64,000 bases of DNA. Origin: an uncultured delta proteobacterium. GTDB taxonomy: Bacteria > Desulfobacterota > Desulfobaccia > Desulfobaccales > 0-14-0-80-60-11. Below, piece after piece: positions 3,461 to 48,587 of this stretch; the stretch's first letter is position 1, and each line of letters opens with the position of its first letter. The DNA lies in assembly GCA_963705115.1 (NCBI GenBank), contig CAVPIX010000002.1:11555-75554 (forward strand), in the 5' to 3' direction. The notes under the pieces were generated by a model, which did no database searches, had not been told where the DNA came from, and saw nothing but the letters and a program-made list of their open reading frames with translations. The translations under genes were made by a program, and so were the position numbers.

Positions 3461-3487
3461 GGATATTTCCTCCTAGCTCGTGAGTAG

Positions 3488-27989: not shown

Positions 27990-28005
27990 TGGCACAGATA
28001 TTGTA
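27990..28005 (+). promoter_or_regulatory. Putative sigma54 promoter for the Cys-rich/GcvH-like genes
   Basis: TGGCAC-AGATA-TTGTA (-12 is GT rather than GC). Confidence 0.5.
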
Positions 28006-28101: not shown

Positions 28102-28530
28102 ATGAGAACGGCAAGCGAACAGCAAAGTCAAGGGAGGCAGGTTTTTTCCATTAACGGTAATCAGTGTGTGTGGATGAAAGCCGGCGTGGTGAATTACAAG
28201 ACCTGCGATAATGCCTTCGATTGTACTTCCTGTACTTTTGATAAGGAAATCAGCAGGAAGTCGGCACAAAAAGCAACTGCCTTGGTTAGTTGGGGAGAGG
28301 TCATGCGGCAACCCCATTTGCATAAGGAATGCCGGCACATGCTGACCGGCCGGGTCCTTTTTAAACTCTGCGCCCACAACTACGAATGTAAGGACTGTGC
28401 CTACGATCAGCAACTGTATGAATATGACCAGCTCATGAATGAAGAGAACCTGTCAGCTATCGCCGCGGTTCAGGTTGATAACTTTCCCGGCTTCACAGTG
28501 TCCATGGTTGACAATTATTGCTCCATATGA
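28102..28530 (+). CDS. Stand-alone double Cys-rich domain (2 x CX12CX5CX2C), duplicate of the N-terminus of the next gene
   Basis: GGAGG RBS; near-identical to the N-terminal ~110 aa of 28621..29541; all eight Cys retained. Confidence 0.8.
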   Translation: MRTASEQQSQGRQVFSINGNQCVWMKAGVVNYKTCDNAFDCTSCTFDKEISRKSAQKATALVSWGEVMRQPHLHKECRHMLTGRVLFKLCAHNYECKDCAYDQQLYEYDQLMNEENLSAIAAVQVDNFPGFTVSMVDNYCSI

Positions 28531-28620: not shown

Positions 28621-29541
28621 ATGAAAACGCCAGACGGACAAAAAGGCCACAGAGTTAAAGTTTTTTCCATGGAAGACAACCAGTGTGTCTGGATGAAGGC
28701 CGGGGTGGTGAATTTCAAAATCTGCGACAATGCCTTTGATTGCACTTCCTGCGCCTTTGACAAGGGCATCAGCAAGAAGGCGGCGCAAAAGCCCACCGCA
28801 CTGGTCAGTTGGCAGGAGGTCATGCAGCAGCCGCATTTGCACAAGGAATGCCGGCATATGCTCACCGGCCGGGTCCAATTCAAGTTGTGCTCCCACAATT
28901 TCGAATGCAAGGACTGCGCCTACGATCAGCAGCTCTATGAGTACGACCAGCTCCTGGTTGAAGAGGACCTGTGGTCTCATCCCGCGGCGACGGCCAACAA
29001 GATTGGCGGCTTCAGGGTGGCCGACGGCTATTACTACCACAAGGGCCACGGCTGGGCCCGCATCGAGCACGGCGGCTTCGTGCGCCTGGGGGTGGATGAT
29101 TTTGCCTGGAAGCTCCTCGGTTGGCCCACGGATATCTCTTTGCCGAAAATCGGCGCGAAGCTCAAGCCCACTGAGACAGGCTGGTCCATTACGAGAGAGG
29201 ACCATACCGCTGAGGTGCTCTCCCCCATGAGCGGCGTCGTCATGGCCACCAATCAAAACGCCTTGAAGCAGCCCAAGCTCGCCAAACAAGACCCCTACGG
29301 CCAGGGCTGGCTGGTGGTCATTGACCCCTTGAGCGGCCTGAAGAGCAAAACCAGAAGTCTGATGTTCGAGCAGAAAGCCGTTTCCTGGCTCAATGCCGAG
29401 GTCATGAAGCTGGACGACCTGGTGATGAGTGCCTACGGCGTCCCCCTGGCGGCCACCGGTGGTGAAATCGTGGACGATATCTACGGCAACCTGCATGATG
29501 TCAAGTGGGAAGACCTGATGCAGACGTTTCTGCATACCTGA
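28621..29541 (+). CDS. GcvH-like protein 1 (Cys-rich N-terminus, lipoyl Lys absent)
   Basis: YYHKGHGWA, VRLGVDDFA, SPMSGVV and DPYGQGWL define the H-protein fold; the lipoyl-Lys position reads Asp (ITREDHTAE). Confidence 0.85.
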   Translation: MKTPDGQKGHRVKVFSMEDNQCVWMKAGVVNFKICDNAFDCTSCAFDKGISKKAAQKPTALVSWQEVMQQPHLHKECRHMLTGRVQFKLCSHNFECKDCAYDQQLYEYDQLLVEEDLWSHPAATANKIGGFRVADGYYYHKGHGWARIEHGGFVRLGVDDFAWKLLGWPTDISLPKIGAKLKPTETGWSITREDHTAEVLSPMSGVVMATNQNALKQPKLAKQDPYGQGWLVVIDPLSGLKSKTRSLMFEQKAVSWLNAEVMKLDDLVMSAYGVPLAATGGEIVDDIYGNLHDVKWEDLMQTFLHT

Positions 29542-29573
29542 GGGTGGCCCGGCATGAGGGGCGGGGCGGCCAG

Positions 29574-30146
29574 TCAGGCCGGCAGGCTGCGCAGGCTCTG
29601 GCGCAGGGCAAAGCTGCACCGCTCGCAAAAAAAGAGGTCCAAGTCGTCGAGGTGGCGGAGTCCGGGGCTATAACACATGAGGCACTTGGGGGTCTCGCAA
29701 TGGTACAGGGAGAAAGTGTGAGCCAGTTCATGGAGGGCGATCTTGGCCAGACGTTCATAATAGACGCCCTCCGGAGCCACCACCCCGTCTTCCAGGTGCT
29801 TCAGGCGGAAATCGGAAATAATTGCCAGGCTTAGCCCCAACTCCGCCTGACCGAACACAAAGGTGAGTATCGGCGAGCACAGGTCTACGTTCGTGACGGC
29901 CAGGATGCGCAGGTGGTGCGGGAACGGAAAGCCGGCCAGGTGCTTAAGGATGAGCCCGGCATCATACTGATTGCGCTGGCGTTGAAAAGCTTCCGCCGGG
30001 ATGGCCATGGCCGGCAGCATCTCCACCGGCGTTTCCAAAAGCGCCTGGATGTTGGCGGCTATCACCCGCAGCGCGGGGCGCGGCACCCGGCCCATCAAGG
30101 TCAGACCGATGGCGGGGGCCTGGGGCTTTTCTCGTGGCGGCGGCAT
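29574..30146 (-). CDS. Archaemetzincin-like Zn metalloprotease
   Basis: TFVFGQA, HELAHTFSLYHC...CLM...FCERC (HExxHxxGxxH with Gly replaced by Ser; Cys4 site retained). Confidence 0.85.
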   Translation of the reverse strand: MPPPREKPQAPAIGLTLMGRVPRPALRVIAANIQALLETPVEMLPAMAIPAEAFQRQRNQYDAGLILKHLAGFPFPHHLRILAVTNVDLCSPILTFVFGQAELGLSLAIISDFRLKHLEDGVVAPEGVYYERLAKIALHELAHTFSLYHCETPKCLMCYSPGLRHLDDLDLFFCERCSFALRQSLRSLPA

Positions 30147-30745
30147 ATCAAAAAGCCCGGGGGGGGGGATTCATAGACATGGTTTCACATTATGGGCGGG
30201 ACTGTAGGGTCTTTTCCCTCCATAAGTCTTTTTGAATTTTAGATGTTCTCTCCCACTTCTGCTTTCAGAAAATAGCATGCGCAGTCCTCCCGTCAAGGCC
30301 AAACCTGGGACCCGCTCCCCTGGGCCTTGATCCGCCTATTCCCGCACTACCAGCCATGGCCAAACCGCATTTTTCCCGAAGGGCAGGACCTAAGGTCCCT
30401 GCCCTCCCCCATCCCCTCTCCCAACCCCTTGAGAAGCCGCCGGGTCCATTGACTACAAGTCTCTGGGATTGATGAAAATCCCATCAAAAAGTGATATCTT
30501 AGATTTACCTGTTGCGAAATAAATCACAAAAGGCCTAGGATTTTTCTGGTCAAGGCTGGTAACTTTTCGTAATATCGTGAAAATACTATTTCCCTGAGGC
30601 ATCATGAGCAAGACCGGCAGCGGCAAAGGCCCCCTGGTGGGCCACTTCACCTGCGACCCCGTGCTGCGTCGGCGCCCCCCTTTCCGCCGCGATCTCCCCT
30701 GGATTGAGGTGACAGGCGGTCCTGCTCCTTTCCCGGAGTGTTCTC

Positions 30746-33001
30746 ATGAGTCCTTTTAAATCCAACTACAATCTTGCCATAGTGGGCGCCGGCCGGCAGG
30801 GGGTGTCCATCCTGGCGGCCCTGGTGCCGCCCCGCAAGGAAAATGAATTTCTCCGGGTGGTGGGCATAGCGGACCTCAATCCCCTAGCTCCCGGCATCGT
30901 CTACGCCAACCGCCACGACCTTTTCGTCACCGACAATTTCACCGATCTCCTCAAGATTCCGGACCTGGACATCATCGTCAACGCCACCGGCCGCCCGGAG
31001 GTCCTGGAGCAATTGAACGAGCAGCGCCCGGAGGGGCTCATCATCTTGAGCGTTAACCGCCCCTATTCCTGGGAAGATTTCTGGGACCTCGTCTCCATGG
31101 AGCTGTCTGCCCCGCAAGTCGCGCCCATACGCCTGGGCATCGTGGGGGGCGGCAAGGCGGCCCACGAAGTCCTCCAGCTTATTACCAAAGACCGCCGCCA
31201 CCAACGGCGCATCGACATTGTCGGCGTGGCTGACCCCGATAAGGAAGCCCCGGGGGTTATCCTTGCCCAGCACATGAAAATTCCGGTTTTCAAGAATTGC
31301 GCCCTGCTGTTGGCGGAAAAGCCGGATGTCATCCTGGAGCTCACCGGCGACCCCAAGGTGCGGGAGCAGGTTATCCAGCAGAAGGACCCTCATGCCCAGA
31401 TTATCGACCACATCAAGGCCCGTTTGTTTTGGGACCTCCTGCGTTATGAAGAGGAAGGCCTGCGCCGGAAAGTGGAAAGTGAAATCAAAATTGCCGGCCA
31501 GCGGGACCGGTTTCAGAGAATTTTTGACCATCTCCCTGATCCGGTGCTGGTGTTAAGATCGGATTATCTCGTGGAGGATGCCAACCTCCCCTCTTTAGAG
31601 CGCTTTCAGAAAAAGGCCGAGGAAGTGGTGGGCCGGCCTTGCTATGAAGTTTTTCATGGCTTTGAGGACCCCTGCGATCACCTGGGCATGACCTGCCCCT
31701 TGCCGGAGGTTTTGGACAAGTGCCAGGCCGTCAAGGTCTTGCAGCGCTGTGACCAGGCTGACGGCACCCAGAGCTATGACGAAATCACCATGGCGCCTCT
31801 GTGTCCGCCGGAGGGCGCCAAAAAAAGGGTGATCGAGGTCATCAGGGATGTCACCCCCCGCAAGAACTTGGAAGAAGCCCTGCGCCTTTCGGAAAAAAGG
31901 GTCCGCAAGGATAAGGCCTTTCTCGAGACCATTGTCAACGGCATCCAAGATCACATGATGGTCATCGGCCTGGATTACCGGATCATCGAGGTCAATGAGG
32001 CCCTGCTGCAGATGGTGGGCCAGAAGCGGGAAGAGGTAGTGGGCAAGCATTGTTATCAGGTGTCCCACCACTTGCATGAGCCCTGCACCGACCCCGATCA
32101 TCCCTGTCCCTTAAAGGATGTCCTGACCACGGGCAAGGCGGTCTCCGCCACCCACGTACACTTCGACAAGGACGGCCGGGAGCGCTATTACCAGGTGGTC
32201 TGCCACCCCATATACGATGATAACGGGCGCATCCATCAGGTGGTTGACCTGGCCCGGGATGTCACCCAGGAAATCACCAGCCGCACCCAGTTGCTGCACG
32301 ACGACAAGATGACGTCCCTGGGTAAGTTATCCGCCAGTGTCGTCCATGAAATTAACAACCCGCTGACCGGAATCCTTAATTTTATCAAATTGATACAGAG
32401 ATTGGTAGGCAAAGGCGAGCTGGACGAGGATGATCTGTCGCAATTATCCGGCTACCTCGATTTGGTTTATAAGGAAACCTACCGGGTCAGCAAAACGGTA
32501 TCCAATCTTCTGATGTTTTCCCGCAAGACCAAGGCGGAGTTCCGGCCCGTGAATCTGAATAACCTGATCTCCGAGACCATCTCCCTGGTGGAAAGCCAGT
32601 TGCGCTTGCAGGACATCAAGGTGAAGCGCCGCCTATCCGCCGACCTGCTGTCCGTCATGGGGGATCAGAGTCAGTTGAAACAGGCGCTCTTAAACCTGTT
32701 GCTGAACGCCATTGAGGCCATGCCCACCGGCGGCGCCCTGACATTGAGCACCAAAAACACCCGGAGCCAGAATGTGGAGATGCAAATCGCCGACACCGGG
32801 GTAGGCATCCCCAAAGAAAGTTTTTCTTATATTTTCGAACCCTTCTATACCACAAAGAAAACCGGCTCCAGCGTAGGTCTTGGGCTTTCCGTGGTGTATG
32901 GCATCATCCGCGACCACAAAGGCACCATCAAAGTGGATAGCACTGTGGGGCAAGGGACGGTCTTTACTGTCCGACTGCCTGCTACTAAACCGGAGGAATA
33001 A
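30746..33001 (+). CDS. Cytoplasmic histidine kinase: two Rossmann-like domains, two Cys-motif PAS domains, HisKA-HATPase
   Basis: IVGAGRQG...GIAD and IVGGGKAA...GVAD; GRPCYE...PC...CPL and GKHCYQ...PC...CPL; VHEINNP; DTGVGI; VGLGL. Confidence 0.92.
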   Translation: MSPFKSNYNLAIVGAGRQGVSILAALVPPRKENEFLRVVGIADLNPLAPGIVYANRHDLFVTDNFTDLLKIPDLDIIVNATGRPEVLEQLNEQRPEGLIILSVNRPYSWEDFWDLVSMELSAPQVAPIRLGIVGGGKAAHEVLQLITKDRRHQRRIDIVGVADPDKEAPGVILAQHMKIPVFKNCALLLAEKPDVILELTGDPKVREQVIQQKDPHAQIIDHIKARLFWDLLRYEEEGLRRKVESEIKIAGQRDRFQRIFDHLPDPVLVLRSDYLVEDANLPSLERFQKKAEEVVGRPCYEVFHGFEDPCDHLGMTCPLPEVLDKCQAVKVLQRCDQADGTQSYDEITMAPLCPPEGAKKRVIEVIRDVTPRKNLEEALRLSEKRVRKDKAFLETIVNGIQDHMMVIGLDYRIIEVNEALLQMVGQKREEVVGKHCYQVSHHLHEPCTDPDHPCPLKDVLTTGKAVSATHVHFDKDGRERYYQVVCHPIYDDNGRIHQVVDLARDVTQEITSRTQLLHDDKMTSLGKLSASVVHEINNPLTGILNFIKLIQRLVGKGELDEDDLSQLSGYLDLVYKETYRVSKTVSNLLMFSRKTKAEFRPVNLNNLISETISLVESQLRLQDIKVKRRLSADLLSVMGDQSQLKQALLNLLLNAIEAMPTGGALTLSTKNTRSQNVEMQIADTGVGIPKESFSYIFEPFYTTKKTGSSVGLGLSVVYGIIRDHKGTIKVDSTVGQGTVFTVRLPATKPEE

Positions 33002-34352
33002 GTGCTGCCGCATAAAAAGATCAGGATCCTCGTCGTGGACGACGAACTGAGCATCCGTGAATCCCTTAAAGGTTGGCTGCAACTGGACGGCTACCAGGTG
33101 GACGCCGCGGCCGGCGGTTCGGAGGCCCTGGCCAAGAACGCCGAGAACCGCTTCGACATCATGCTCATCGACGTCAAGATGCCTGAAATGGACGGCTTGA
33201 CCTTGCTGAAAAAGGTTAAGGAAACCGATGCCGATATCGCCATTCTCATGATGACCGCCCACGGCGCCATTCGGGATGCGGTGGAAGCCATGAAACTGGG
33301 CGCCTACGATTATCTGCTCAAGCCCTTCGAACTGGAGGAATTAAGCCTCAGCATCGAAAAACTGGTGCATTTGCAAACCCTGGCCATGGAAAACCTTATC
33401 CTGAAGGAGCGGGTCGCCAGCATCACCCGGTTTGAAAACCTGGTGAGTCAGGCTCCGGTCATGATTAAGCTGTTTGAAACCATTGTGGATGTGGCCCAAA
33501 CCGACGCCACCGTCCTCATCACCGGCGAAACCGGCACCGGCAAAGAGTTGGTGGCCCGGGCCATCCATACTCAAAGCCCGCGCTGTTACGCCCCTTTCAT
33601 TGCCATCAACTGCGGGGCCTTCACCGAACAACTCCTGGAGAGCGAACTCTTCGGCCACGAGCGGGGCGCGTTCACCGACGCCAAAAGCGCCAAGAAGGGC
33701 CGCCTGGAAATGGCCAATGCCGGCACCCTCTTCCTGGACGAAGTGGGTGATATTTCCATGAGGATGCAGATTGACCTGCTGCGGGTGCTCCAGACCCGGG
33801 AATTCACCCGAGTGGGCGGCACCCTCACCCTGCGCAGCGATTTCCGGGTCATCGCCGCCACCAACCAGGATATCCAGGAAGCCATCCAGAAAAAGACCTT
33901 CCGATCCGACTTGTTTTACCGGTTAAATGTGGTTCATCTCGAGGTACCGCCCCTGAGGGAGAGGCCGGAAGATATTCCCCTTTTTGGCCCAGCATTTTTT
34001 GTGGTGCTATGCCACCGAGACCAATAAAAAGATCGACTCCATCCATCCGGAGGCCATGGAGGCCTTGCGGCGCTATCTGTGGCCCGGAAATGTCAGGGAA
34101 CTGGAGAATGCCATCGAACGGGCCGTAGTGGTGGGGAAAGGCCGGCAAATCCAACTAAAGGATTTGCCTTTTACCATTGCTTTGGGAGGCGCGGCGGAAA
34201 TGGAAAAATTGTCTCTGGAGGAGATGGAGCGCCAGCATATTGCCCGGGTCCTGGCCATCGAAGCCGGCAATCTTTCCAATGTTGCCAGAGTCCTGCGCAT
34301 CAACCGCTCCACGCTTTATGCCAAGATCAAGAAATACGGCTTGGCGCCCTAA
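33002..34352 (+). pseudogene. sigma54-dependent response regulator split by a +1 frameshift (T5 at 33981-33985)
   Basis: ORF 33002..34027 carries REC and AAA+ (GAFTDA). Removing one T gives DIPLLAQHFL and joins ORF 33984..34352 (WPGNVRELEN, HTH). Confidence 0.85.
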
Positions 34353-34392
34353 AACCGTTTCTTAAACTCTCCAATGCTAACTTATGGGTTGA

Positions 34393-35031
34393 ATGGCAAA
34401 CCATCCGTTTTTAGGCCTGGTGGCCTTAGGTCCCGTCGATCCGGACATCCTTCGGAGACTGCGCACCACCCTCGCTAAGTTCCTCAAGCTGCCGGTGCGG
34501 GTGCTGAAACCCAAGCCCCTGCCGGCGCAGACGTATCACTTGACGCGGCAGCAGTATAATTCCACCCAGTTGCTGGAATTTCTCCTGGACCATGTAAAAA
34601 CCAGGGCCCTGCGGGTTTTAGGGGTGACGGCCGGGGATCTTTATATTCCCATCCTGACTTTCATTTTCGGTGAGGGCCTGGTAAACGGCAAGGCTGCCAT
34701 CATCTCCCTGTTCCGTCCCCGGGGTGACGCCGATGGGGTCACACCTTCCCGGACGGTCCTCATGGAACGCCTTATAAAGCTGAGCCTGCACGAATTGGGT
34801 CACACCTTCGGCCTGGGGCATTGCCGCGAAAAGGGGTGTTTAATGGGATTTTCGTCGAATTTGGAAAAATTGGACCAGACAGAAATTGCTTTCTGTGATT
34901 ATTGCCAGGTTTTAATGACGGATTTCTTTCTGGAGCAAGGCTTGCAGCCGCCCCTCAAGCGGTATGCAGAAACTCCTGTACAAGTCGCTTCCAACCCAGG
35001 TTCGGGTAATTCCCATAAACATCGTCAATGA
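34393..35031 (+). CDS. Archaemetzincin-like Zn metalloprotease
   Basis: TFIFGEG, HELGHTFGLGHC...CLMGFS...FCDYC (canonical motif). Confidence 0.9.
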   Translation: MANHPFLGLVALGPVDPDILRRLRTTLAKFLKLPVRVLKPKPLPAQTYHLTRQQYNSTQLLEFLLDHVKTRALRVLGVTAGDLYIPILTFIFGEGLVNGKAAIISLFRPRGDADGVTPSRTVLMERLIKLSLHELGHTFGLGHCREKGCLMGFSSNLEKLDQTEIAFCDYCQVLMTDFFLEQGLQPPLKRYAETPVQVASNPGSGNSHKHRQ

Positions 35032-35836
35032 TCGTCCCTCCGGAAGGCAGGAAGGCTCCCGGAGCGGCTTGCAGCATCCCCAACAGCTTGATGATTTCGC
35101 TCTCGGTCCAGGCGATGTTGCACTGGCCAAAAAGCATCTCTTCCAGATCCCCCTTCAAGTTGGTGGGAGTAACTACAAAGAGCCAGCCCTCACCGTAGGG
35201 ATCGTCATGGGTGATTTGCGGTCTTTCCCGGACCTTGGGATTAATGGCGTCGATGGTCCCGTCAAGGGGCGCCAGAACCTCAGCCTTTTTCCTCTGGCGG
35301 CCCAGGCTCATGAACGGTTCGTTAGCTCTAATTTTTTGGCCGATTTTCGGAAAATCCATCCTGGTGACCGGGCCCAGGAGTTTTTGCGAGAAGTCGTCCA
35401 AGCCGAGACGCACCCGGTCAGCCTTCTCCAGAGCCACCCAGGTGTGGCCCAGATGCAGAAAATTGGAGGTGGGCACTTGAATGCCGAAAATTTCATGCAC
35501 CCGGGGTTGGGGGGGGGCCAGGAAAAAATCGAATTGTTCTTCCAGAAGCTCGTCAAAGGAACACTGGTGGCAGAAATTTGTCTTCATCAACGGGCACTGG
35601 CGGCGTTCCCCGAACCGTTGGTGCATCTTGTTTTCCCACGGCAGCCGCTTTACTGCCTGTGCCGCAGGATCCTTCGCTGACTGTCGCCGGGCCAGTTGTT
35701 TGACCGCGGATTCGGTCATGGCCTGGTCGAATTCGCAGGCCTGGCAATCGAAGTTATTATCACAGAGCTTGAACTGGATCACCCCGGCATCCACCCAGAT
35801 GCAGGATTTCTTACTTTCCATAACTCTCTCTGCCAT
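34955..35836 (-). CDS. GcvH-like protein 2 (Cys-rich N-terminus, lipoyl Lys absent)
   Basis: Start at ATG 35836. CIWVDAGVIQFKLCDNNFDCQAC; LHLGHTW, LGLDDF, APLDG and DPYGEGW; the lipoyl position reads Arg. Confidence 0.85.
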   Translation of the reverse strand: MAERVMESKKSCIWVDAGVIQFKLCDNNFDCQACEFDQAMTESAVKQLARRQSAKDPAAQAVKRLPWENKMHQRFGERRQCPLMKTNFCHQCSFDELLEEQFDFFLAPPQPRVHEIFGIQVPTSNFLHLGHTWVALEKADRVRLGLDDFSQKLLGPVTRMDFPKIGQKIRANEPFMSLGRQRKKAEVLAPLDGTIDAINPKVRERPQITHDDPYGEGWLFVVTPTNLKGDLEEMLFGQCNIAWTESEIIKLLGMLQAAPGAFLPSGGTIIDDVYGNYPNLGWKRLVQEFLHTA

Positions 35837-35986
35837 GATCTTAGCTCCCAGCCTGACAAACCCTGGCGGATTTACCAATGAGCAAGGTTTGCCCAATCCA
35901 CCCTGCCTTCACCCTTCTCCAGGAAGGGTGAAGGCCAGGGAACAGGAGAAACAGCTGCGTTCTCCTGATTTTCAGGTCTCCCTCCT

Positions 35987-36601
35987 TTACTTCACCGGAC
36001 GGATGAGACCCTTTTTCATCAGGTTTTTCAGGAAAAATTCCTGGACCAGGAGCTTCCAGCCCAACTCCTGATAATTGCCATAGACGTCGTCGACGATTTC
36101 GCCGCCGTCAGGCAGGGTGACGCCAATCCTGGTCTCCATCAGGTTCAGCAGGCGGTGCGACTCCTTTTCCATCCAGATGACCGCATCCTCGCCGGTGAGC
36201 AGGTTCTCCAGATTGCGGCGGAGATTGATGGGCTTGACCATAAACAGCCAGCCTTCCCCGTAAGGATCATCATGAATGAGACCAGGGTTTTGCTGGACCT
36301 TGGGGTTGACCTCCTCAATGGCGCCGTCCACCGGAGCCTCAAAGGAAGCCTTTTTCCCCTCCCGGATCAAAGCCAGGCAAAGATGATCCTGAAAGTAGAC
36401 CTTGCCGATCTCCGGCAGCCTGACTTCCTTTGCCAGGCCCAGGAGCTTTTGAGAGAAGTCATCCAGTCCCACCCTTACCAGATCGTCGCCCTCAGGCGCC
36501 GCCCAGGTATGGCCCCGGTGCAGGTAATAATTCTCGGTGGGCACTTGAAAACCGAAAACCTCGCTCATCTGTGACCGTGTGATCTTTTCCTGAGGCATCA
36601 T
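35987..36601 (-). CDS. GcvH-like protein 3 (no Cys-rich domain, lipoyl Lys absent)
   Basis: Start at ATG 36601 after AAGGAGG; LHRGHTW, VGLDDF, APVDG and DPYGEGW; the lipoyl position reads Gly. Confidence 0.85.
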   Translation of the reverse strand: MMPQEKITRSQMSEVFGFQVPTENYYLHRGHTWAAPEGDDLVRVGLDDFSQKLLGLAKEVRLPEIGKVYFQDHLCLALIREGKKASFEAPVDGAIEEVNPKVQQNPGLIHDDPYGEGWLFMVKPINLRRNLENLLTGEDAVIWMEKESHRLLNLMETRIGVTLPDGGEIVDDVYGNYQELGWKLLVQEFFLKNLMKKGLIRPVK

Positions 36602-36677: not shown

Positions 36678-37583
36678 TTATGCATTCGGAGTGACAGCCA
36701 CCATATGGCTGATGACGGCGTCCCTGGGAACGTTGCAAATCGACGCCACCTGTTTGGGATCAAATCCCAGACAGAGGGCCAGCAGCTGGTTGTAATCGAA
36801 CACCGGGATCTTGTAGCGCTCTTCGCCCAATTGTTCGTTGAGGATATTCTGAACCCTTTCCATGTGCATCAGACAGGTAATGCAGGAGACCGCGATGAAA
36901 TCGGCCTTGGTTTCTTCAAGGATGGCGTCGAATTTCTTTTGGGCGAACTCGATGGCCTGCTCCGGGGTGCTTTTCATAAAGCCGCCGGCCCCGCCGCAAC
37001 AGTCCAGCTCGCGACTAAAGCCGTCCACCTCGGCTCCCAGGGCTTCCACCAGCAGCCGCAGGCCCTTGGGCGCCCGGGGAGATTCCTCAAACCCCACGAC
37101 TTCGCTGGGGAACAGGGTGTGGCAGGGGTACTGCACCACCCCGTGGAGTCCCGTGAGGCTCTTTTTGAGATTCGAGGAAATTTTCTCCGGACCTACTTCC
37201 CGCAAGAGGACCTCCGACACATGGCGCACCTTGGATTTCCCGGTGACGGACCGCCCGGTGGGCTCGAGCAGTTCATTGACGTGGGCCAGTTTTTCCTGGT
37301 CATGGATCATGTGCTCGCGTCCCATGCGCAGGGAACTGTAGCAGGAACCGCACTGGACTACGAAATCACAGCCATGCTGCTCGGCAATGGAAAGGTTCCA
37401 GCCGCTGGTGGCCATCCAGGCCTCCTCGTCGGACGATGGGAAAGACCCGAAGGCCGGACAGCAGACATAGTTGTCGGCATCCACGATGTCAATGCCCAAG
37501 ACCGGCATTGACGCCCGAATGGCCCGCTCCACATCCGGCCGGATGGCAGGGGTGTTACAGCCCGGGAAGAAACATAGTTGCAT
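36678..37583 (-). CDS. hdrB: Heterodisulfide reductase subunit B (two CCG domains)
   Basis: Start MQLCFFPGC at 37583; VCCPAFG, QCGSCY, QYPCH, DCCGGAGG and SCITC. Confidence 0.9.
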   Translation of the reverse strand: MQLCFFPGCNTPAIRPDVERAIRASMPVLGIDIVDADNYVCCPAFGSFPSSDEEAWMATSGWNLSIAEQHGCDFVVQCGSCYSSLRMGREHMIHDQEKLAHVNELLEPTGRSVTGKSKVRHVSEVLLREVGPEKISSNLKKSLTGLHGVVQYPCHTLFPSEVVGFEESPRAPKGLRLLVEALGAEVDGFSRELDCCGGAGGFMKSTPEQAIEFAQKKFDAILEETKADFIAVSCITCLMHMERVQNILNEQLGEERYKIPVFDYNQLLALCLGFDPKQVASICNVPRDAVISHMVAVTPNA

Positions 37584-37615
37584 CTTATTGTCCTCGTGTG
37601 TATGAACTTGCTCTT

Positions 37616-38128
37616 TTATCCCTTGAACATATAGTCGTTTTCGCTGACTATCTGGGTCTGCATGAGCATTTCCTGGAACATGGCCAGTTGCTCCGGGTTT
37701 TTGGTTATGATGGGCAAGGGGGGCAACCCCAGGGAATCGCGCAACTCCTGGTTGGCGCCGGCCGCCTGGGTATAGCCCCGCTTGTAGATCTCCACGATGG
37801 CCGACGGGATCAGGGTCTCGTCGTTTTTGCACTGCCATTGCCGGATGGAGAGGATCATCTCAAAGGGCATGACATTTTGGGGGCACATCTCCTCGCACCT
37901 GGAACAGGAGACACAGGCCCAGGGCGTGTCATCCATGAGGAGATCCTCCTCCAGTCCCAGGATCACCTTCCGAGCCAGATTCCTGACCAGCAGCGGCGGG
38001 TCCCCATGGGAGGCCGGACAGCCGGAGACACAGGTGCTGCAATTGAAACAGTAATGCAGGTTGCCGGTGTTATAGATATCTTTCCACAGATCCTTGGTCG
38101 ATCCTTCTTGCAAGTCCATGATCCCCAC
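37616..38128 (-). CDS. hdrC: Heterodisulfide reductase subunit C (2x[4Fe-4S])
   Basis: CFNCSTCVSGCP and WACVSCSRCEEMCP. Confidence 0.9.
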   Translation of the reverse strand: MGIMDLQEGSTKDLWKDIYNTGNLHYCFNCSTCVSGCPASHGDPPLLVRNLARKVILGLEEDLLMDDTPWACVSCSRCEEMCPQNVMPFEMILSIRQWQCKNDETLIPSAIVEIYKRGYTQAAGANQELRDSLGLPPLPIITKNPEQLAMFQEMLMQTQIVSENDYMFKG

Positions 38129-38131
38129 CTC

Positions 38132-41100
38132 TTATCCGGCAGTTGATGAAAACAAGCTGTCAATGAGTTTGGCGTCAATGACAGCCATCAGTTGCTTGTC
38201 ACTCCAGCCTCTGACCTCAGCCGCATTGTTCTGGCACTCCACCGCGCACATGCCGCAGGCCTGACAGGCTGCCGCATCGATCTCAATGCAATTATCCGCC
38301 TCATTAAAGGATCTCGCCTCAAACGGGCAGATGGGCACGCATCTCTGGCAGCGCACACACAAGGCGTCTTTCACCAGTGAGGTGACCGCAGCCGTGTGCA
38401 CCTCCCGGCGGGACAGATAGGTGTAGGCCTTCTGGGCTGCCGCCTCGGCCTGCAAGAGCACGCTCCTTAAAGGCATGGGCGAATGGGCCGTGCCGGCCGC
38501 ATAGATGCCCACCTTCTGGAATTCGATGGGACGCCATTTGGAATCCGCCTCGGCAAAAAACCAATCTCCGGTTACCGGGATATTGAAGGCTTCGGCCAGG
38601 TGCAGATTGGACTCTTCCGGATCCACGCCGGTGGCCAGAACCACCAGGTCTGCAGGTACCTGCAATTCTTCCTGGAGGACCGTATCCATGATTTTGACCA
38701 CCGGCTTGCCGTCCTCGCCAATTTCCACCTGGGGCTTGTTATCCAGGCTGTAATTGATGAAAATCACCCCGGCGGCCCTGGCTTGGGAGTAATACTGCTC
38801 GTAGAAGCCATAGGTCATGATGTCCCGGTAGAGCATGAAGACCCGGGCTTCGGGATTCATTTCCTTGATCTTCAGGGCATTGCCGATGGCTCCCAGGCAG
38901 CAGATCCGGCTGCAGTAGGGGCGCCCGGTCTTCTCCCGCGACCCCACACACTGGATCATCACCACATTTTCCAGTTCTCCGGGGTCGATGTCGCCGCTGG
39001 CGAGCCCCTGGCGCAATTCCGCCTGGGTCAGGACCGCGTCCGAGGTCCCGTAGCCGTATTCGTCGGCGGCGCCTTCATGCCCGCCGGTGGCCATGATCAC
39101 CGCCCCGTGATGCAAATAGGTGTCATTGCCGCTATCCTTGAAATGCAGCTTGGACTCGAAATCGCCCAGGTTGCCCACGGTTTTCTCAACCTCGCAATTC
39201 AGGTGGACATTGATGTTCTTGTGTTCGAAAACCTTGAGCTTCATATCATTGGCCATGGCCATGGGAGCCAGGCCATCCACCGTCCTCTCCACCCGGGTGC
39301 CGAGATAGCCGCCCAGATGGGCTTCCTTTTCCACCAGATGCACCGGCACCCCCCGTTCCGCCAGGGACAGGGCGGTGTGCATGCCGGCGAGGCCGCCGCC
39401 GATCACCAGGGCGTTCTGGTTGATGGGCAGAGTGCTCACCGAAAGATCCGGCTTAAATCTGAGCTTTTCGATATCCCCTTTGATTTCCCTGGCTGTCCGC
39501 AAGGTCCAGTCCTCGGTGGACGGCTCGGCCAGGCCTTTCCTGGCCATGCCGAACAGATCGAAAATCTCCACCATGGAGGAGTTGAAGCCGGCCTTCCTGG
39601 CTTCATTCTTGAGATGCCGCCGGTACATGAAAGGGTGGCAGGCCCCGATGACCAACCGGTTGCATTTGGACTTGCCCAAAACATCCTCGAGGACCGCCTC
39701 GCCATCGGCCATGCACATGGAATCGATGACCTGGACCGCGCCCACGCCCGGGTAGCGTTTCAATTCGGCGCCCAGGAGCTCGTAATCGAGCCCTTCCGCA
39801 CCAGGCTTTTCCCCGCATTTGCACAGGGCCACCGAGACCAGGGGCATTTCCCGCCGATGGCTGGTGGGTTCGGGGATTTCCTCTTCCTGCACCTTGTCCA
39901 GGCCCAGGGAAGCGAGGAATTTGGTGGCCTCTCCCGCCGCGGCGATACCGCTGGACACGGCCTCGCTGATATCCGTGAGTCCCATGAGCGAGCCGCAGAG
40001 AAACAGGGCGGGCTTGCCCTCAACCCTCACCTTGCTGGCCTCTTCGGTGGCGATCAGGCCCCGCTCATCCAGGGGGGCGTTCACCAGGCCGGCCATTTTT
40101 ATATGGGTCTCATAGGGCATCTGACCTGTGGACATTACCACCAGGTCATAATCCTGCACATGGAACTCGTTGGTCTCGGGATCGATATAACGTATGGCCA
40201 GACTACCGTCAGGCTTGGCCATCACCCCCTGCACCCGGCAGCGGATCAGGTTCACCCCATGTACGTCCACGGCCTCGTCCCGGTACTGTTGGAAGCCTTT
40301 GCCGAAGGTCCGCATATCCATGTAAAAAATGGTGGTGTCCACCTCCGGCCCGCCTTTTTCCTTGGCCAGGACGGCCTCTTTCAGGGCAAACATGCAGCAT
40401 ATGGAAGAACAGTAATCTCTTCCCTGCCGCCGGTTGCGCGAACCCATGCACTGGATCCAGGCAATGTTTTTGGCGGGCTGGCCGTCGGACGGCCGTCTGA
40501 TGACGCCGTCCTGATAGGTGCCGGAACCGCTCAGCATCCGCTCAAAGGCGAGGGAGGTGACCACATCCGGCGACACGGCATAGGACTTGGCGTCCTCGTA
40601 ATCCCGGGTGTTATAGAGCTTGACCCCGGAGGCCAGGATAAGGGCGTGGACCTCTCTCGTCTCAGCAAGGTCCTGGGCCTCCAGGTTGATGGCATTGGTG
40701 GGACAAACCTTGAGGCACTCACCGCAGCTGGTGCAAGCCTGTTTGTCGATGAGCAGCATCCTCGGGGTATTGTGGGGCACCGGCTGGTAGATGGCCTTGC
40801 GCGTGGTCAGCCCCTGGTTGAACTCATCTGGGACCTCCACCGGGCAAACGTCCAGGCATTCCCCCATCTCGTTGCAGATGGCCGGGTCGATATAGCGGGC
40901 CTTTTTCAGCAACTCGACCTTATAATTCCCCGCATCCCCTGTTACCGAGGTGATCTCCGTAAAGGGCAGGATCTCGATATTTTCGTGAAACAGGCTTTTG
41001 CGCATACAGTACTGCGAGGCATACTCGCGGCCCACCAGGGGCAGCATTCTGCACATGCCGCAATGATCCGTGGGGAATTGGTAATCAAGTTTGGCCAGGA

Positions 41101-41233
41101 TGCCCCCCATCTGGGGGGAATCGTCGGTCAATATGACCTTGTAGCCCGATTCGGCCAACTCTATGGCCGCCTTGACCCCGGAAATGCCGGCGCCGGCTAC
41201 CAGGACGGTTCCTATAGGCTTTTTCTCCGCCAT
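38132..41233 (-). CDS. hdrA: HdrA-like flavoprotein with two FAD modules (tandem, QmoA/QmoB-like arrangement)
   Basis: GAGISG and GGGLAG dinucleotide motifs; two IQC-x-GSR...YCS-x-ICC motifs; internal CKCG; ferredoxin motifs. Confidence 0.88.
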   Translation of the reverse strand: MAEKKPIGTVLVAGAGISGVKAAIELAESGYKVILTDDSPQMGGILAKLDYQFPTDHCGMCRMLPLVGREYASQYCMRKSLFHENIEILPFTEITSVTGDAGNYKVELLKKARYIDPAICNEMGECLDVCPVEVPDEFNQGLTTRKAIYQPVPHNTPRMLLIDKQACTSCGECLKVCPTNAINLEAQDLAETREVHALILASGVKLYNTRDYEDAKSYAVSPDVVTSLAFERMLSGSGTYQDGVIRRPSDGQPAKNIAWIQCMGSRNRRQGRDYCSSICCMFALKEAVLAKEKGGPEVDTTIFYMDMRTFGKGFQQYRDEAVDVHGVNLIRCRVQGVMAKPDGSLAIRYIDPETNEFHVQDYDLVVMSTGQMPYETHIKMAGLVNAPLDERGLIATEEASKVRVEGKPALFLCGSLMGLTDISEAVSSGIAAAGEATKFLASLGLDKVQEEEIPEPTSHRREMPLVSVALCKCGEKPGAEGLDYELLGAELKRYPGVGAVQVIDSMCMADGEAVLEDVLGKSKCNRLVIGACHPFMYRRHLKNEARKAGFNSSMVEIFDLFGMARKGLAEPSTEDWTLRTAREIKGDIEKLRFKPDLSVSTLPINQNALVIGGGLAGMHTALSLAERGVPVHLVEKEAHLGGYLGTRVERTVDGLAPMAMANDMKLKVFEHKNINVHLNCEVEKTVGNLGDFESKLHFKDSGNDTYLHHGAVIMATGGHEGAADEYGYGTSDAVLTQAELRQGLASGDIDPGELENVVMIQCVGSREKTGRPYCSRICCLGAIGNALKIKEMNPEARVFMLYRDIMTYGFYEQYYSQARAAGVIFINYSLDNKPQVEIGEDGKPVVKIMDTVLQEELQVPADLVVLATGVDPEESNLHLAEAFNIPVTGDWFFAEADSKWRPIEFQKVGIYAAGTAHSPMPLRSVLLQAEAAAQKAYTYLSRREVHTAAVTSLVKDALCVRCQRCVPICPFEARSFNEADNCIEIDAAACQACGMCAVECQNNAAEVRGWSDKQLMAVIDAKLIDSLFSSTAG

Positions 41234-41243
41234 AATCCCGCTC

Positions 41244-42374
41244 CTATTTGACCTGACCGGTCACTTCCATCAACTCATCTGATTTGAAGACAGCCATGGG
41301 CTGTTCTTCCTCAAGAGACCGTCCTGCCTGATAGTTGAACCGGGCCTGAGTCTTGTCGGCGCAAGTTCTGAACAACGGCATCAGATCAATGTCATTGGGG
41401 CAGGCGCTGGTGCACTGACCGCAGCCGACACACATGAGGCTCATGTGGGTCATGCGGACCAGGTGATAGAACAGGGTGTCGTTGGGCAGCTTCAGCGCCC
41501 CGCTTTGATCGGCCCACAGCATGTATTGGTCGCCAGTGTGCCGGAAGGTGTCGGTAACGAAGACGCATTCCTTGCAGTAGCACACCGGGCAGGCCACCCG
41601 GCAGTTGTAACAGTTGATACAGGCGGACAGTTTGTCGGCCAGCGCCTCAAAGTTGCTGGTCTCATCCCGGAATTCAGCAAATTTCTTATCCCTGGCCTCG
41701 GTGCGGGCCGCCATCAGTTTCTTCACCGCTTCGTCCCGCCCGGCCGGAGCCGCACCCGATTTCAGGCCCGATTTTTCCAGGGCTTGCTTGCCTTTGGAAG
41801 TAATGGCTTCGATGAAGACCGCGCCATTGCCCGCGCCCAGGGAGCACAACCTCATATCCACCTGGTCAGCCGTGGGGAATTCGCAGATCTGGCAGGCGCC
41901 GCAGATGTCGACATCCCCCATGGCGGTCTTGCCGGCCTGGGCGTTTTCCAGGAAGGACTCGGAGGTCCCGCCCTGCTCCTGGAATTTGGCAAAATCGGTA
42001 TTCTCATAGCGGCCCAAGCAGTCCACGCTCATCAGCAGGACATCATCGAGGGCCACCTGCTTTAACTTGGCCAGTTCCACCACGGCGCGAATCTCGCAGG
42101 GGCGCAGGACCATGACCAGCCTGCGGCCGGAGGGCCGAGCGGTCAGCGAAGAGGCAATCTTGGCGCCGCTCACCGCCGCTATGGGGGCAAAAGGATCCAC
42201 CCGGTCGGTATATTCAGGGGAGGTGATCAGAGAAAGCCGAACCCCCTTCTTGGGTTGCGCCATGGGCACCAGGACCCCATCAACCGCGCCCTTTTCCAGC
42301 ATGCCCTTGAAAAAGGCGCCCAGTTTCGTATTCATCTCGTCTTTCTGAAAAGACAGTTGCGCATAGTTAGCCAT
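41244..42374 (-). CDS. FdhB/FrhB-N (FlxD-like) iron-sulfur protein
   Basis: RPCEIRA, SVDCLG, CGACQIC, CINCYNCRVACPVCYC and CVGCGQCTSACP. Confidence 0.8.
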   Translation of the reverse strand: MANYAQLSFQKDEMNTKLGAFFKGMLEKGAVDGVLVPMAQPKKGVRLSLITSPEYTDRVDPFAPIAAVSGAKIASSLTARPSGRRLVMVLRPCEIRAVVELAKLKQVALDDVLLMSVDCLGRYENTDFAKFQEQGGTSESFLENAQAGKTAMGDVDICGACQICEFPTADQVDMRLCSLGAGNGAVFIEAITSKGKQALEKSGLKSGAAPAGRDEAVKKLMAARTEARDKKFAEFRDETSNFEALADKLSACINCYNCRVACPVCYCKECVFVTDTFRHTGDQYMLWADQSGALKLPNDTLFYHLVRMTHMSLMCVGCGQCTSACPNDIDLMPLFRTCADKTQARFNYQAGRSLEEEQPMAVFKSDELMEVTGQVK

Positions 42375-42393
42375 GTCCGTCCTCTCCGTGTCC

Positions 42394-42822
42394 TCAGATT
42401 GCCATTTGAGCCAAGGCCCGCAGCGGGCTTGGTCCTAAGTGCCTCAATTTTTTGGTCATCTCGTCCGCGACTTCTTTCAGCATGGTGCCCTCACTGGCGG
42501 CGATCCACCTGAGCCAGAAACGCTGTTCATCGATGCCGTACTGTTTCAGGATCTCGGTGAGGTTGGCCACCCGGCGCCGGGCCTTCAGGTTGCCGTTGAT
42601 ATAATGACAGTCCCCCGGCCAGCAGCCGCCGATGAGGACGCCGTCCGCGCCGTTCAGAAAGGCCTTGATGACGTATTTCGGGTCCACCATGCCGGTGCAC
42701 ATAACCCGGATGATCTTGAGGTTGGGCGGGTACGCCAGGCGCGAAGTGCCGGCCAGGTCGGCGGCAGTGAAGGTGCACCAGTTACAGAAAAAGGCTACGA
42801 TTTGGGGTTCTAACTCGCTCAT
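42394..42822 (-). CDS. mvhD: MvhD-like [2Fe-2S] subunit
   Basis: FFCNWC, RVMCTG, GADGV and GCWPGDCHY. Confidence 0.93.
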   Translation of the reverse strand: MSELEPQIVAFFCNWCTFTAADLAGTSRLAYPPNLKIIRVMCTGMVDPKYVIKAFLNGADGVLIGGCWPGDCHYINGNLKARRRVANLTEILKQYGIDEQRFWLRWIAASEGTMLKEVADEMTKKLRHLGPSPLRALAQMAI

Positions 42823-42825
42823 CGC

Positions 42826-45800
42826 CTAGGCTCCTTGTTGAAATAAAAGTCCGTCGATTTCGGCAAAAATCTGCTTATCGGTGAAGTGTCTCACCTTGGC
42901 GGCGCCGCTGGGACAAGCACCGGAGCAGCTTCCACATCCTTTACAGATGGCGCTGTTGACCTCACTGATGCCCCCATACTCATTGAACTCGATGGCCGTA
43001 TAGGGGCAGAGGCCGATACAGAGTTGGCAACCGACGCAGATGTCCGGATCAATGCCGGAGATCATGGGCGGGATCTCCACCTGACCCGCGGAGGACAGCG
43101 CCAGGCATTCCGCCGCGGCCCCCTTGGCCTGGGCCACCGTGTCCGGGATGTCCTTCGGTCCCTGGCAGGTCCCGGCCAGAAAAACACCGCTGGTGGGGGT
43201 GGATACAGGCGCCAGTTTCGGATGCTGCTCCTGGAAGAAGCCGTCCTGACCGATGCCGATACCGAATTTGCGCATGACGTCGGTGGCGTCGGGTCTCGGT
43301 TCCATGGCGGTGCAGAGGATGACCATCTCCACCGGGACTTCGATCAGGCGGCCGGAGAGGGTATCCTCCCCCTTCACGGTGAGGATGCCGTTGGCATCTT
43401 CGGTGATGGAACCGGCCTTGCCGCGAATCATCTTGACGCCTTCGGCCTGGACCTTTTTGTAGAATTCCTCGTAGCCCTTGCCGAAGCAGCGCATGTCGAT
43501 GTAGAAGTTGTAGATTTCGGTGTCGTGCCCGCATTTGTCTTTCAGCAGATGGGCATACTTCAGGGCATACATGCAGCAGGTGCGGGAGCAGTATTCGTGG
43601 TAGTTCTTGTCCCGGCTGCCGATGCAGTGGAGAATGGCCACGCTCTTGGGCGGGTCCGTGAACTTCAGGGGATCTTTCAGATCACGCTTCAGGAGCTTGC
43701 CCGCGGTGGGCCCGGTGGCGTTGCTGAGCCGCTCGAACTCCAGGTTGGTAAAGACGTTCCGGTACTTGCCGTAGCCGTACTGGGTCATCTTGGACGGATT
43801 CATGGGGTCAAAGCCCGTGGCGATGATGATGGAGCCGACGTCGATGGTTTCTCTCTTGTCAACCATCTCATGGTCAATGGCCTTGGCCTGGCAGGCATCC
43901 ACACAGAGCCTGCATTCGCAGCAGCCGCCGCAATCCACGCAGCGGGCCGCCTCCGCCTTGGCCTGCTCCTCACCGAACCCCAGTTCCACTTCCTTGTAAT
44001 TGTGAATCCGGTCAGCTACCGGCAGGAGGGGCATCTTGGCCCGGGGTGCAGACTTGACCTCTTTCGGGATGGCCTTCCAGTTGCTGCCGGCGGGCTTGGG
44101 CGGTCTGTTTTCCGCCAGATCCTCGCCCAGCAGGTATTTTTCTATGGAGATGGCCGCCTGCTGGCCTGCGGCGATGGCGTCCACCGCGATGGAGGGCCCG
44201 GTGAACAGGTCGCCGCCGGCAAAGATGCCTGGGTAGGTGGTCTGGAAGGTCACCGGATTGGCCACCACCGTCCCCCACCTGGATAGCTCGATCCCTTCCG
44301 TGCCTTCCAGGAAACTGCTGTTGACGTGCTGGCCGATGGCCGGGATAATCATGTCGCAGTCCACGTCGAATTCCGAACCAGCCACCGGCACCGGTCTCCT
44401 TCTGCCGGAGACGTCCGGTTCGCCCAGTTCCATCTTGATGCAGCGGAGCCCCGTAACCTTGCCGTTTTCGGTGAGGACGGCCAGTGGAGCCACCAGCAGT
44501 TCGATCTTGATGCCTTCTTCCTCCGCGGCCTTGACTTCATGCTTGGAGGCCGGCATCTCGTCCCGGCTCCGCCGGTACAGCATGGTCACCTCGGAGGCGC
44601 CTTGCCGCAAAGCCTCCCGGGCCGAGTCGATGGCCGTGTCGCCGCCGCCCACCACCGCTACCTTTTTCCCGGTCTTCACCGGTTCCCTGCGGTTGAGCAT
44701 GCCGAGATAATCGACCCCGTGCACGACGCCTTCCGCATCCTCGTTTTCGATCTTCATCTTCATGCTGCTCTGGGCGCCGGTGGCCAGGTAAACGGCCTTA
44801 AAGCCCTCATTGAAGAGACCGGCGATGGGGCGGTCCTTGCCGATGGAGACGTTCAGCTGGATATCCACACCCAGCTTCTTGATGTAGTTGACCTCCCGTT
44901 CGAGAACCTCGGGTGGCAGGCGGTAGTCCGGAATGCCGGCCCGGAGCATGCCGCCGACAAAGGGGGCCCCTTCGAAGATGGTGGGATGATAGCCTTTTTT
45001 GGCCAGGAAATAGGCAGCGGTCAGGCCGGCCGGACCCGCGCCGATGATGGCCACCTTCTCGGTTTCCGGCTGCTTGTCGATTTCCGGCACCGGCAGGGTG
45101 TCCCAATCCACCTGATCCGCGGCAAACCGCTTCAACTGGCAGATGGCCAGGGGAGATTCCACCTCTTTCCGGCGACATTGCCCCTCACAGGGAGCGGGAC
45201 AGATGCGCCCCAGGGAGCCGGGCAGGGGCATGGTCTCCATGATCACCTTGAGTGATTCCTCGTACCGGCCTTCCCTGATGAGGGCGACAAATCCCTGGAT
45301 ATTGATACCCGCGGGGCAGTTCTGCACGCAGGGGCCCCGGTCGTATTTTTCGATGGCGTAGCGCACCGGCACCGCCTGGGGGAAAGAGATATAGATGGCC
45401 TTGCGCATCTTGGTGCCCGCGTCCCATTCGTTGGGCGACTCCACGGGACAGACCTTGGCGCAGTCGCCGCAGCCGGTGCAGTTGGTCTTCACAAAGCGGG
45501 AGCGCTGATTGACGTTGACCTTGAAGTTGCCCACAAAGCCGCTGACGCTCTCCACCTCGGAGTTGGTCATCAGATTGATGTTCTTGTCCTGGCCCACGGC
45601 CACCATTTTCGGGGTGCCGATACAGGCGGCGCAGTCCAGGGTGGGGAAGGTCTTGTCGTACTGGAGCATGTGCCCCCCCACGGTGGGCTGCCGCTCCACC
45701 AGGAAGACCTTGTTGCCGGAGCTGGCGATGTCCAGGGCCGCCTGCATGCCGGCGATGCCCCCACCCACCACCAGGGTGTTGGGGTTGACCGAGAAGGTGC

Positions 45801-48571: not shown

Positions 48572-48587
48572 AGCAAGACACATGCCA
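48572..48587 (-). promoter_or_regulatory. sigma54 (-24/-12) promoter of the hdr operon
   Basis: Minus strand TGGCAT-GTGTC-TTGCT, a consensus match about 45 bp upstream of the start. A TGT-N11-ACA site lies at 48652-48668. Confidence 0.8.

Follow-up and report, generated by a model that had tools for sequence, protein, structure and literature searches.

What can a protein with the fold of the glycine cleavage H protein (GcvH) do once it lacks the lysine (Lys) that carries lipoate? This question is raised by three genes, here called W1, W2 and W3, in a stretch of 64,000 nucleotides (nt) of DNA, referred to as the window, from an uncultured delta proteobacterium of the order Desulfobaccales (NCBI GenBank assembly GCA_963705115.1, contig CAVPIX010000002.1, positions 11,555 to 75,554 of the forward strand). 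The analysis described here places the three proteins in a family of extended, lysine-less GcvH-like proteins that is widespread and apparently undescribed, and suggests that its members may act as cofactor-less docking subunits of inducible redox complexes.

Absence of the lipoyl lysine in W1, W2 and W3

The three genes encode variations on one architecture. W1 (306 amino acids; 28621..29541, plus strand) begins with a domain containing the motif CX12CX5CX2C twice, W2 (34955..35836, minus strand) carries one full and one shortened copy of this motif, and W3 (204 amino acids; 35987..36601, minus strand) has no N-terminal module. The open reading frame (ORF) of W2 spans 34955-35896 and its start is uncertain (TTG at 35896, ATG at 35836 or 35821), the ATG at 35836 being the likely one; for W3, the sequence AAGGAGG lies 7 nt ahead of the ATG. 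All three proteins match the Pfam profile PF01597 (GCV_H; cut-off 22.2 bits) with high significance, W1 at 64.7 bits (E 9e-18), W2 at 71.7 bits (E 7e-20) and W3 at 79.7 bits (E 2e-22). Their scores against the GcvH equivalog TIGR00527 (60.6, 70.7 and 72.3 bits, respectively) place them outside that group, for which the cut-off is 115.85 bits.

Genuine GcvH proteins are distinguished by a lipoylated lysine at the tip of a beta-hairpin, within the motif E-S/A-V-K, and none of the three proteins possesses it. In MAFFT alignments, K64 of Escherichia coli GcvH (ESVK) corresponds to Asp in W1, Arg in W2 and Gly in W3; a KK pair occupies positions +1/+2 of this lipoyl-Lys column in W2 and W3, and no such pair is found in W1. 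Other H-protein motifs, including H-x-W, VN and DPY..GW, are mostly retained. An earlier reading of the window from its letters alone (hereafter the original prediction) had proposed three GcvH-fold proteins without the lipoyl lysine, with Asp, Arg and Gly in its place, and the reading frames, profile matches and alignments confirm it on each of these points. Decay or pseudogenisation of the three genes was also considered and was rejected, since the genes are strongly conserved, their frames are intact and RNA contigs were found.

A family of lysine-less relatives with a conserved extension

A sequence search over 1.84 billion representatives yielded 4682 matches, 1609 of them at E <= 1e-10, ordinary GcvH included. 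For 126 of the best 150 matches, the alignment covers the H-protein core as well as the C-terminal tail, and these representatives, sharing at most 50% identity, were used to measure conservation. Gly (49 representatives), Asp (18) and Ser (13) are found in the lipoyl-Lys column. When the representatives are combined with genes from 71 genomic loci, giving 192 members, a lysine is present in the column in only five, and 128 have none anywhere from position -1 to +2. Across the family, the GcvH-like part contains neither a conserved Cys nor a conserved Lys. As judged from these alignments, loss of the lysine is a trait of the family and not three separate accidents.

The second hallmark is a helical C-terminal extension of approximately 65 residues, conserved in W1, W2 and W3 (in W3, PDGGEIVDDVYGNYQELGWKLLVQEF). 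Its anchors D165, G166, G167, W182 and F189 (W3 numbering) are 79-98% conserved among the representatives, or 87-98% when D165 is set aside, and the IVDDVYGN stretch is conserved solely within the closer subfamily; the common non-GcvH tail noted in the original prediction is real. Each of the three window proteins aligns along the whole 190-residue unit and combines a GCV_H core, a helical tail with the D-G-G, W and F anchors, and a hairpin without a conserved lysine.

A scan of GTDB species genomes recovered 578 confirmed relatives. The best 80 loci belong to Desulfobaccales, Syntrophobacterales, Desulfobacterales (including the cultured Desulfosarcina variabilis), Acidobacteriota, Gemmatimonadota, Ignavibacteriota, Bacteroidota, Planctomycetota, Chlorobiota and others, and tail-bearing members were detected in at least 53 genomes of a sample of 201 Desulfobacterota species. 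Naming sources label these proteins as "glycine cleavage system H lipoate-binding protein", and a full-text search of the literature returned no paper on a GcvH family that lacks the lysine and is associated with Hdr, sigma-54 or archaemetzincin.

Fold of the core and of the extension

Structure prediction supports the assignment of the core. The AlphaFold2 model of W3, built from an alignment of 90 sequences, has a mean predicted local distance difference test score (pLDDT) of 93 and a predicted template modelling (TM) score of 0.89. In a Foldseek search of the PDB, its top matches are H proteins only, with 1onl_A at E 5e-13, a target TM score of 0.91 and a root-mean-square deviation (rmsd) of 1.6 Å over 128 columns. 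The W1 model reaches a pLDDT of 80 overall and above 90 in its GcvH-like part, which matches 1onl_A with a target TM score of 0.90. Taken over 1ONL, 3KLR and 3A7L, target TM scores of 0.90-0.91 and rmsd values of 1.5-1.7 Å were obtained, as expected of an H-protein fold. The hairpin of the W3 model is formed by strands 74-80 and 83-88 and places E81-G82 at its tip, where H proteins hold the lipoyl lysine; this structure-based comparison, which the original prediction had called for, agrees with the sequence alignment. The helices of the extension (W3 residues 137-196) have no counterpart in the PDB by Foldseek, and the query TM score is just 0.58.

Absence of a lipoylation route in the genome

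Could the proteins be lipoylated, or otherwise acylated, on a neighboring residue? The original prediction had pointed to nearby lysines as alternative modification sites, in which case W2 (through its KK) and W3 (through K83/K84) would be true swinging-arm carriers. The presence of Lys at +1 and +2 of the canonical column in these two proteins favors such an idea, as does the existence of a near-canonical, lysine-bearing GcvH in the same genome. However, W1 has no lysine there, and among the 126 representatives both columns vary (R 41, K 32 and H 15 at +1; S 21, K 17 and R 16 at +2), in addition to the majority of members, counted above, that lack any lysine near the tip. In lipoyl domains, moreover, a shift of the hairpin lysine by a single position is reported to abolish lipoylation.

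The window's own assembly (4.0 Mb in 20 contigs, 96.9% complete) was searched with profiles for GcvP (PF02347), GcvT (PF01571), LipA (TIGR00510), LplA (TIGR00545) and LipB (TIGR00214), and none was found; the profile controls were positive in the expected reference genomes. The sole match to PF03099 (BPL_LplA_LipB) is BirA, a protein of 356 amino acids with an N-terminal helix-turn-helix domain. Thus, the lack of gcvP, gcvT and a ligase, initially remarked for the window, extends to the whole assembly, and neither the P and T partners nor the lipoylation enzymes that a working GcvH requires are detected. With no LplA, LipB, LipA, GcvP or GcvT in this 97%-complete genome, and with birA as the one gene of the BPL family, it is very unlikely that a shifted lysine becomes lipoylated. 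The proposal that these proteins are lipoate-independent is therefore strongly supported, by the family-wide absence of the lysine as well as by a genome without lipoate ligase, octanoyltransferase or lipoyl synthase; the alternative modification sites find no such support, since the columns vary and no modifying enzyme is encoded. Biotinylation was rejected as a further candidate: the genome encodes BirA, but an MKM-type motif is missing from the hairpin.

The near-canonical protein, a fourth GcvH that did not figure in the original prediction, lies outside the window on contig 7 of the assembly (G000, 36747-37106; locus L001:1471-1947, minus strand). It comprises 158 amino acids, has the lysine in place (VEAKK) and an acidic tail, and scores 124 bits against the GcvH subfamily model NF002270 (cut-off 117). 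Its gene adjoins a ResB-like cytochrome c biogenesis gene with no partners of the glycine cleavage system beside it, and it is an orphan H protein with no visible lipoylation route in the genome.

N-terminal modules and fusions

The part of the family that varies most is the module ahead of the core. Among the 126 representatives, this module is a hydrophobic, transmembrane-like segment in 66, one or two CX12CX5CX2C motifs in 27, another Cys-rich sequence in 14, and absent in eight. From Ignavibacteriota to Desulfobacterota, the first Cys motif (C-[VI]-W-M-x-A-G-x4-K-x-C-x5-C-x2-C) does not vary between phyla. The Cys-rich domain has no sequence relative in Pfam, NCBIfam or the PDB, and a Foldseek search with the full W1 model returned H proteins only.

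Several relatives are fused to redox domains. These include proteins of 972-977 amino acids combining Fer4, FlpD/MvhD, Molydop_binding and GcvH-like domains; a 2x[4Fe-4S] ferredoxin joined to a GcvH-like domain; and a protein in which three GcvH-like domains are linked to a flavin adenine dinucleotide (FAD) oxidase, Fer4 and two CCG domains, with a weak match to RnfC_N (E 1e-5). In a metagenome-assembled genome of Desulfobacca sp., a 972-residue fusion of the first kind (Fer4-MvhD (FlpD)-Molydop_binding-extended GcvH-like; L016:7631-10549, plus strand) comes after HdrL, MetV (DUF5981), MetF (methylenetetrahydrofolate reductase) and a small HdrA (neighbors at 3-7478), a gene order that links the family to the methylene-tetrahydrofolate reductase/Hdr module of the Wood-Ljungdahl pathway.

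Redox and regulatory genes around W1, W2 and W3

In the window, W3 and then W2 are the final co-directional genes after hdrCB. The operon ahead of them (36678..48526, minus strand), assigned from Pfam and NCBIfam matches, consists of co-directional genes with short gaps, namely QmoC/HdrD-like (46202-48526), the first gene, followed by HdrL (42826-46209), MvhD (42394-42822), FrhB/FdhB-like (41244-42374), a double HdrA (38132-41233), HdrC (37616-38128) and HdrB (36678-37583). Between hdrB, W3 and W2, no terminator-like site above background was found.

This arrangement invites the possibility that the Cys-rich domain is itself a protein-borne redox substrate, whose disulfide or persulfide would be reduced by the CCG clusters of HdrB, in the manner of DsrC with DsrK, while the GcvH-like core presents it. 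The direct succession of hdrB, W3 and W2 fits such a role, as does the relative in which three GcvH-like domains are fused to a CCG protein. In general, it is also not known which disulfide bacterial HdrABC-type enzymes reduce physiologically. A precedent for a GcvH-fold partner of Hdr is provided by LbpA of sHdr systems (PMC6067878). On the other hand, the fixed-spacing four-Cys motifs, occurring twice, resemble ligands of a metal or cluster rather than a redox pair; W3 and the membrane-anchored majority have no conserved Cys; and the same proteins occur with NrfCD and in the company of no CCG protein at all. We consider a DsrC-like role rather improbable, and less likely than the signaling role discussed below.

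The GcvH-like genes are also flanked by two sets of regulatory and protease genes, each consisting of a histidine kinase, an NtrC-type (sigma-54) response regulator and an M54 archaemetzincin. The first kinase (24573-26075, minus strand) and first regulator (26110-27471, minus strand) are divergent from a unit formed by W1 and CysN, the latter being a stand-alone 2x CX12CX5CX2C domain of 142 amino acids (28102..28530, plus strand) located directly 5' of W1 and 68% identical to the W1 N-terminus. The second kinase (30746-33001) and second regulator (33002-34352) lie on the plus strand. Archaemetzincin a (29574..30146, minus strand) contains the motif HELAHTFSLYH and matches PF07998 at E 4e-12 and NF033823 at 135 bits; archaemetzincin b (34393..35031, plus strand) contains HELGHTFGLGH and matches at E 3e-22 and 142.9 bits, respectively.

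Conserved neighborhoods in other phyla

The same neighbors recur elsewhere. In 38 loci of at least 15 kb from Desulfobacterota, Acidobacteriota, Gemmatimonadota, Ignavibacteriota, Bacteroidota and Planctomycetota, neighbors were detected by tblastn with the window proteins and by unbiased clustering of 1069 ORFs, both of which give the same picture. Histidine kinases are present in 30 of these long loci, sigma-54 regulators in 30, M54 archaemetzincins in 31, NrfC/NrfD pairs in 16 (42%), and HdrA or HdrL in 14 (37%). Two or more paralogues of the family occur in 37 of 71 loci, two or three being typical. Within the sample of 201 Desulfobacterota genomes, the matches listed include an M54 gene, often an adjacent one, for 49 of the 53 family-bearing genomes, against 28 of 148 family-less genomes (odds ratio 52; Fisher p 5e-22 with no correction for phylogeny); these numbers are minimum values. 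With its two regulator sets, its archaemetzincins and its sigma-54 promoter-like sites (see below), the window conforms to this family neighborhood.

Beyond Desulfobacterota, an operon found in four loci (L044, L071, L072 and L076; e.g., L072:6851-15300) encodes a membrane-anchored GcvH-like protein, an NrfC-like protein with a twin-arginine translocation signal, an NrfD-like protein, a GcvH-like protein, a Cys-rich GcvH-like protein, a histidine kinase, a sigma-54 regulator and an M54 protease; the NrfCD pair in these loci is not accompanied by a gene for a catalytic subunit. A minimal cassette in Ignavibacteriota (L077, L078) consists of two GcvH-like genes, a histidine kinase, a response regulator and an M54 gene, with no NrfCD.

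The constancy of the regulatory genes suggests a different explanation, in which the GcvH-like proteins, especially the Cys-rich one, would be signaling accessories that sense redox state or metal, or feed back on the kinase/sigma-54 regulator pair, with M54 processing them and Hdr or NrfCD being merely co-regulated targets. Kinase, regulator and M54 are the most constant neighbors (30-31 of the 38 long loci), the Cys-rich GcvH-like gene is usually located just upstream of the kinase gene, and the regulator genes in the window are divergent from CysN-W1. The invariant first Cys motif, the strong co-occurrence with M54 and the cassettes with no redox enzyme nearby point in the same direction. 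Against such a role, the domain is fused to MvhD, ferredoxin and FAD oxidase-CCG and not to signaling domains; approximately half of the family is membrane-anchored and encoded between or beside nrfC and nrfD; the receiver domain of the regulator is already under kinase control; and the two or three paralogues typical of a locus exceed what a sensor would need. Although we judge it unlikely, signaling remains a serious rival because the regulatory neighbors are constant and minimal cassettes exist.

Sigma-54 promoter-like sites and expression

Two -24/-12-like sites characteristic of sigma-54 are suitably placed in the window. One (TGGCACAGATATTGT, 27990..28004, plus strand) lies approximately 100 nt 5' of the CysN-W1 unit, a placement that is seen again ahead of family genes in 14 loci, and the other (TGGCATGTGTCTTGC, 48573..48587, minus strand) precedes the hdr operon with W3 and W2 at its end, 5' of its first gene. 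Since the number of such sites over the whole window is not above chance (seven versus 6.6 expected), only their placement and their enrichment across loci carry weight. Of 23 strong intergenic sites across loci, 14 are directly 5' of a family gene, at distances of 2-280 nt and mostly 24-86 nt, whereas family genes account for 9% of all genes (binomial p 7e-10). This enrichment indicates that the family is a typical sigma-54 output, and its members are presumably expressed under the neighboring regulator, as far as can be read from promoter-like sequences.

Contigs 100% identical to W3 over 36020-36555 were recovered from four environmental metatranscriptome runs of two studies, which points to transcription of W3. 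For the adjoining 3.3 kb, no metatranscriptome contig was found in runs chosen by W3 words, and DNA carry-over is possible.

A proposed role in docking to inducible redox complexes

Taken together, these features suggest that W1, W2 and W3 could be docking subunits without a cofactor of their own, recruiting Fe-S/Cys-rich modules or membrane anchors to redox complexes induced through sigma-54, a reading that we regard as evenly balanced between being right and wrong. Each protein consists of an intact H-protein beta-sandwich and the family-specific helical extension of approximately 65 residues, preceded by a variable N-terminal module: none in W3, one or two CX12CX5CX2C motifs for a metal or Fe-S cluster in W1 and W2, and a membrane helix, ferredoxin or MvhD in relatives. 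Metal binding by the Cys motif is likewise a prediction. Neither lipoylated nor equipped with a swinging arm, the core and tail might form a docking and oligomerization module through which the N-terminal module, serving for electron transfer or as an anchor, is joined to an inducible redox complex. In the genome of the window, this complex would be the HdrL-MvhD-HdrA-HdrCB enzyme, whose operon is ended by W3 and W2, and in other lineages an NrfCD-type membrane module. The bare W3 and the Cys-rich W2 probably act as a pair. Sigma-54 promoters controlled by a dedicated pair of histidine kinase and NtrC-type regulator would drive expression, and the archaemetzincin that nearly always accompanies the family genes may contribute as a protease.

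Several observations weigh against this proposal. The Cys-rich domain is modeled at a pLDDT of only 58-78 and has no structural relative, and the GcvH-like part has no conserved Cys. The minimal cassettes of Ignavibacteriota, which have no redox enzyme within 10 kb, would suit a signaling role equally well. Adjacency to hdrB is lost even in the closest relatives; for example, in locus L008 the W3/W2 pair stands apart from hdr with a sigma-54 site of its own. In addition, the genes of the loci were called by a simple ORF picker.

The original prediction had proposed a carrier or adaptor for an Hdr complex. The carrier half of this idea is unsupported, as neither Cys nor Lys is conserved in the GcvH-like part. 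The adaptor half fits the window itself, where W3 and W2 follow hdrCB, as well as the MvhD, ferredoxin and CCG fusions and the loci with HdrA or HdrL (14 of 38), but it is too narrow, since kinase, sigma-54 regulator and M54 are constant over at least six phyla and NrfC/NrfD take the place of Hdr elsewhere.

A broader extension of the docking proposal would treat extended GcvH-like proteins, archaemetzincin and the kinase/sigma-54 regulator as one cross-phylum module, in which the lysine-less H fold is a dedicated cytoplasmic partner, for acceptance or docking, of the disulfide-reductase/CCG or NrfCD end of inducible redox complexes and is matured or turned over by M54. We regard this as rather doubtful; if true, it would name a missing partner of bacterial HdrABC-type enzymes and provide the first functional context for bacterial archaemetzincins. 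More generally, the current label of the family would wrongly ascribe glycine cleavage or lipoate metabolism to genomes with neither of the two, such as this one. The modules to which the family is repeatedly tied (Hdr, MvhD, CCG and NrfCD) have bacterial partners that are for the most part not known physiologically, and a defined, sigma-54-inducible partner protein would open this question to experiment. The tight association with archaemetzincins, whose substrates are unknown, offers a second testable lead.

Comparison with known systems

GcvH (PF01597, TIGR00527; 1ONL, 3A7L) shares the beta-sandwich fold with W1, W2 and W3, which differ from it in the missing hairpin-tip lysine, in scores of about half the equivalog cut-off, in the added helical extension and variable N-terminal modules, in sigma-54 control, and in a genome devoid of P and T proteins and lipoylation enzymes. 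LbpA proteins of sHdr systems have a strictly conserved lipoylated lysine and two conserved Cys and are served by dedicated sLpl ligases (Cao et al. 2018, PMC6067878), and the strictly conserved lysine was stressed for all Hdr-associated lipoate-binding proteins (PMC6067878). Both groups comprise GcvH-fold proteins encoded with an Hdr-type complex and are likely partners of a CCG-containing subunit. Unlike LbpA, W1, W2 and W3 have neither the site lysine nor conserved Cys in the GcvH-like part, and sLpl ligases are not present; W3 and W2 do follow hdrCB, as in an LbpA cluster, but the Hdr of this cluster belongs to the bifurcating HdrL/MvhD/HdrA type and is not sHdr.

GcvH-L of the SirTM/LplA2 operon (5A35) is another divergent H-protein paralogue outside glycine cleavage, with a weaker fold match (E 2e-6). 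It is lipoylated and ADP-ribosylated, and it has no C-terminal extension, Cys-rich module or redox-enzyme context. Curated non-GcvH look-alikes also exist, namely NF045810 (GcvH_rel_desulf, "GcvH-related protein") and TIGR03077 (not_gcvH); the window proteins belong to neither, scoring 24-41 bits for the first (cut-off 150) and 39-46 bits for the second (cut-off 144). RnfC_N and the N-terminus of NqrA provide examples of a lipoyl/biotinyl-like barrel-sandwich hybrid that has no prosthetic group and serves as a structural module of electron-transfer complexes. Their sequence relationship to W1, W2 and W3 is undetectable, and the likeness is one of use rather than membership.

Additional observations at the locus

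In the assembly, a 1-base frameshift divides the second response regulator into two frames, 33002-34027 and 33984-34352. A 757-nt contig of a metagenome run (X1) has one base fewer at 33981, which would join the two frames; the break thus probably reflects an error of assembly or a variant strain and not a dead gene. The W3-W2 spacer (35840-35986, minus strand, 150 nt) contains two strong hairpins with no T-run, CAGGAGAA..TTTCTCCTG and CCTTCACCCTTC..GAAGGGTGAAGG; together with the transcript contigs that cover W3 only, they raise processing or stabilization of the W3 transcript as one possibility. Finally, the PAS domains of both histidine kinases of the window contain a conserved triad of Cys residues, C-x11-12-C-x4-6-C-P (e.g., KTCHDFFYNSVEPCPMETCAL and RPCYEVFHGFEDPCDHLGMTCPL), which is also found in cassette kinases of other phyla and represents a candidate metal- or redox-sensing site.

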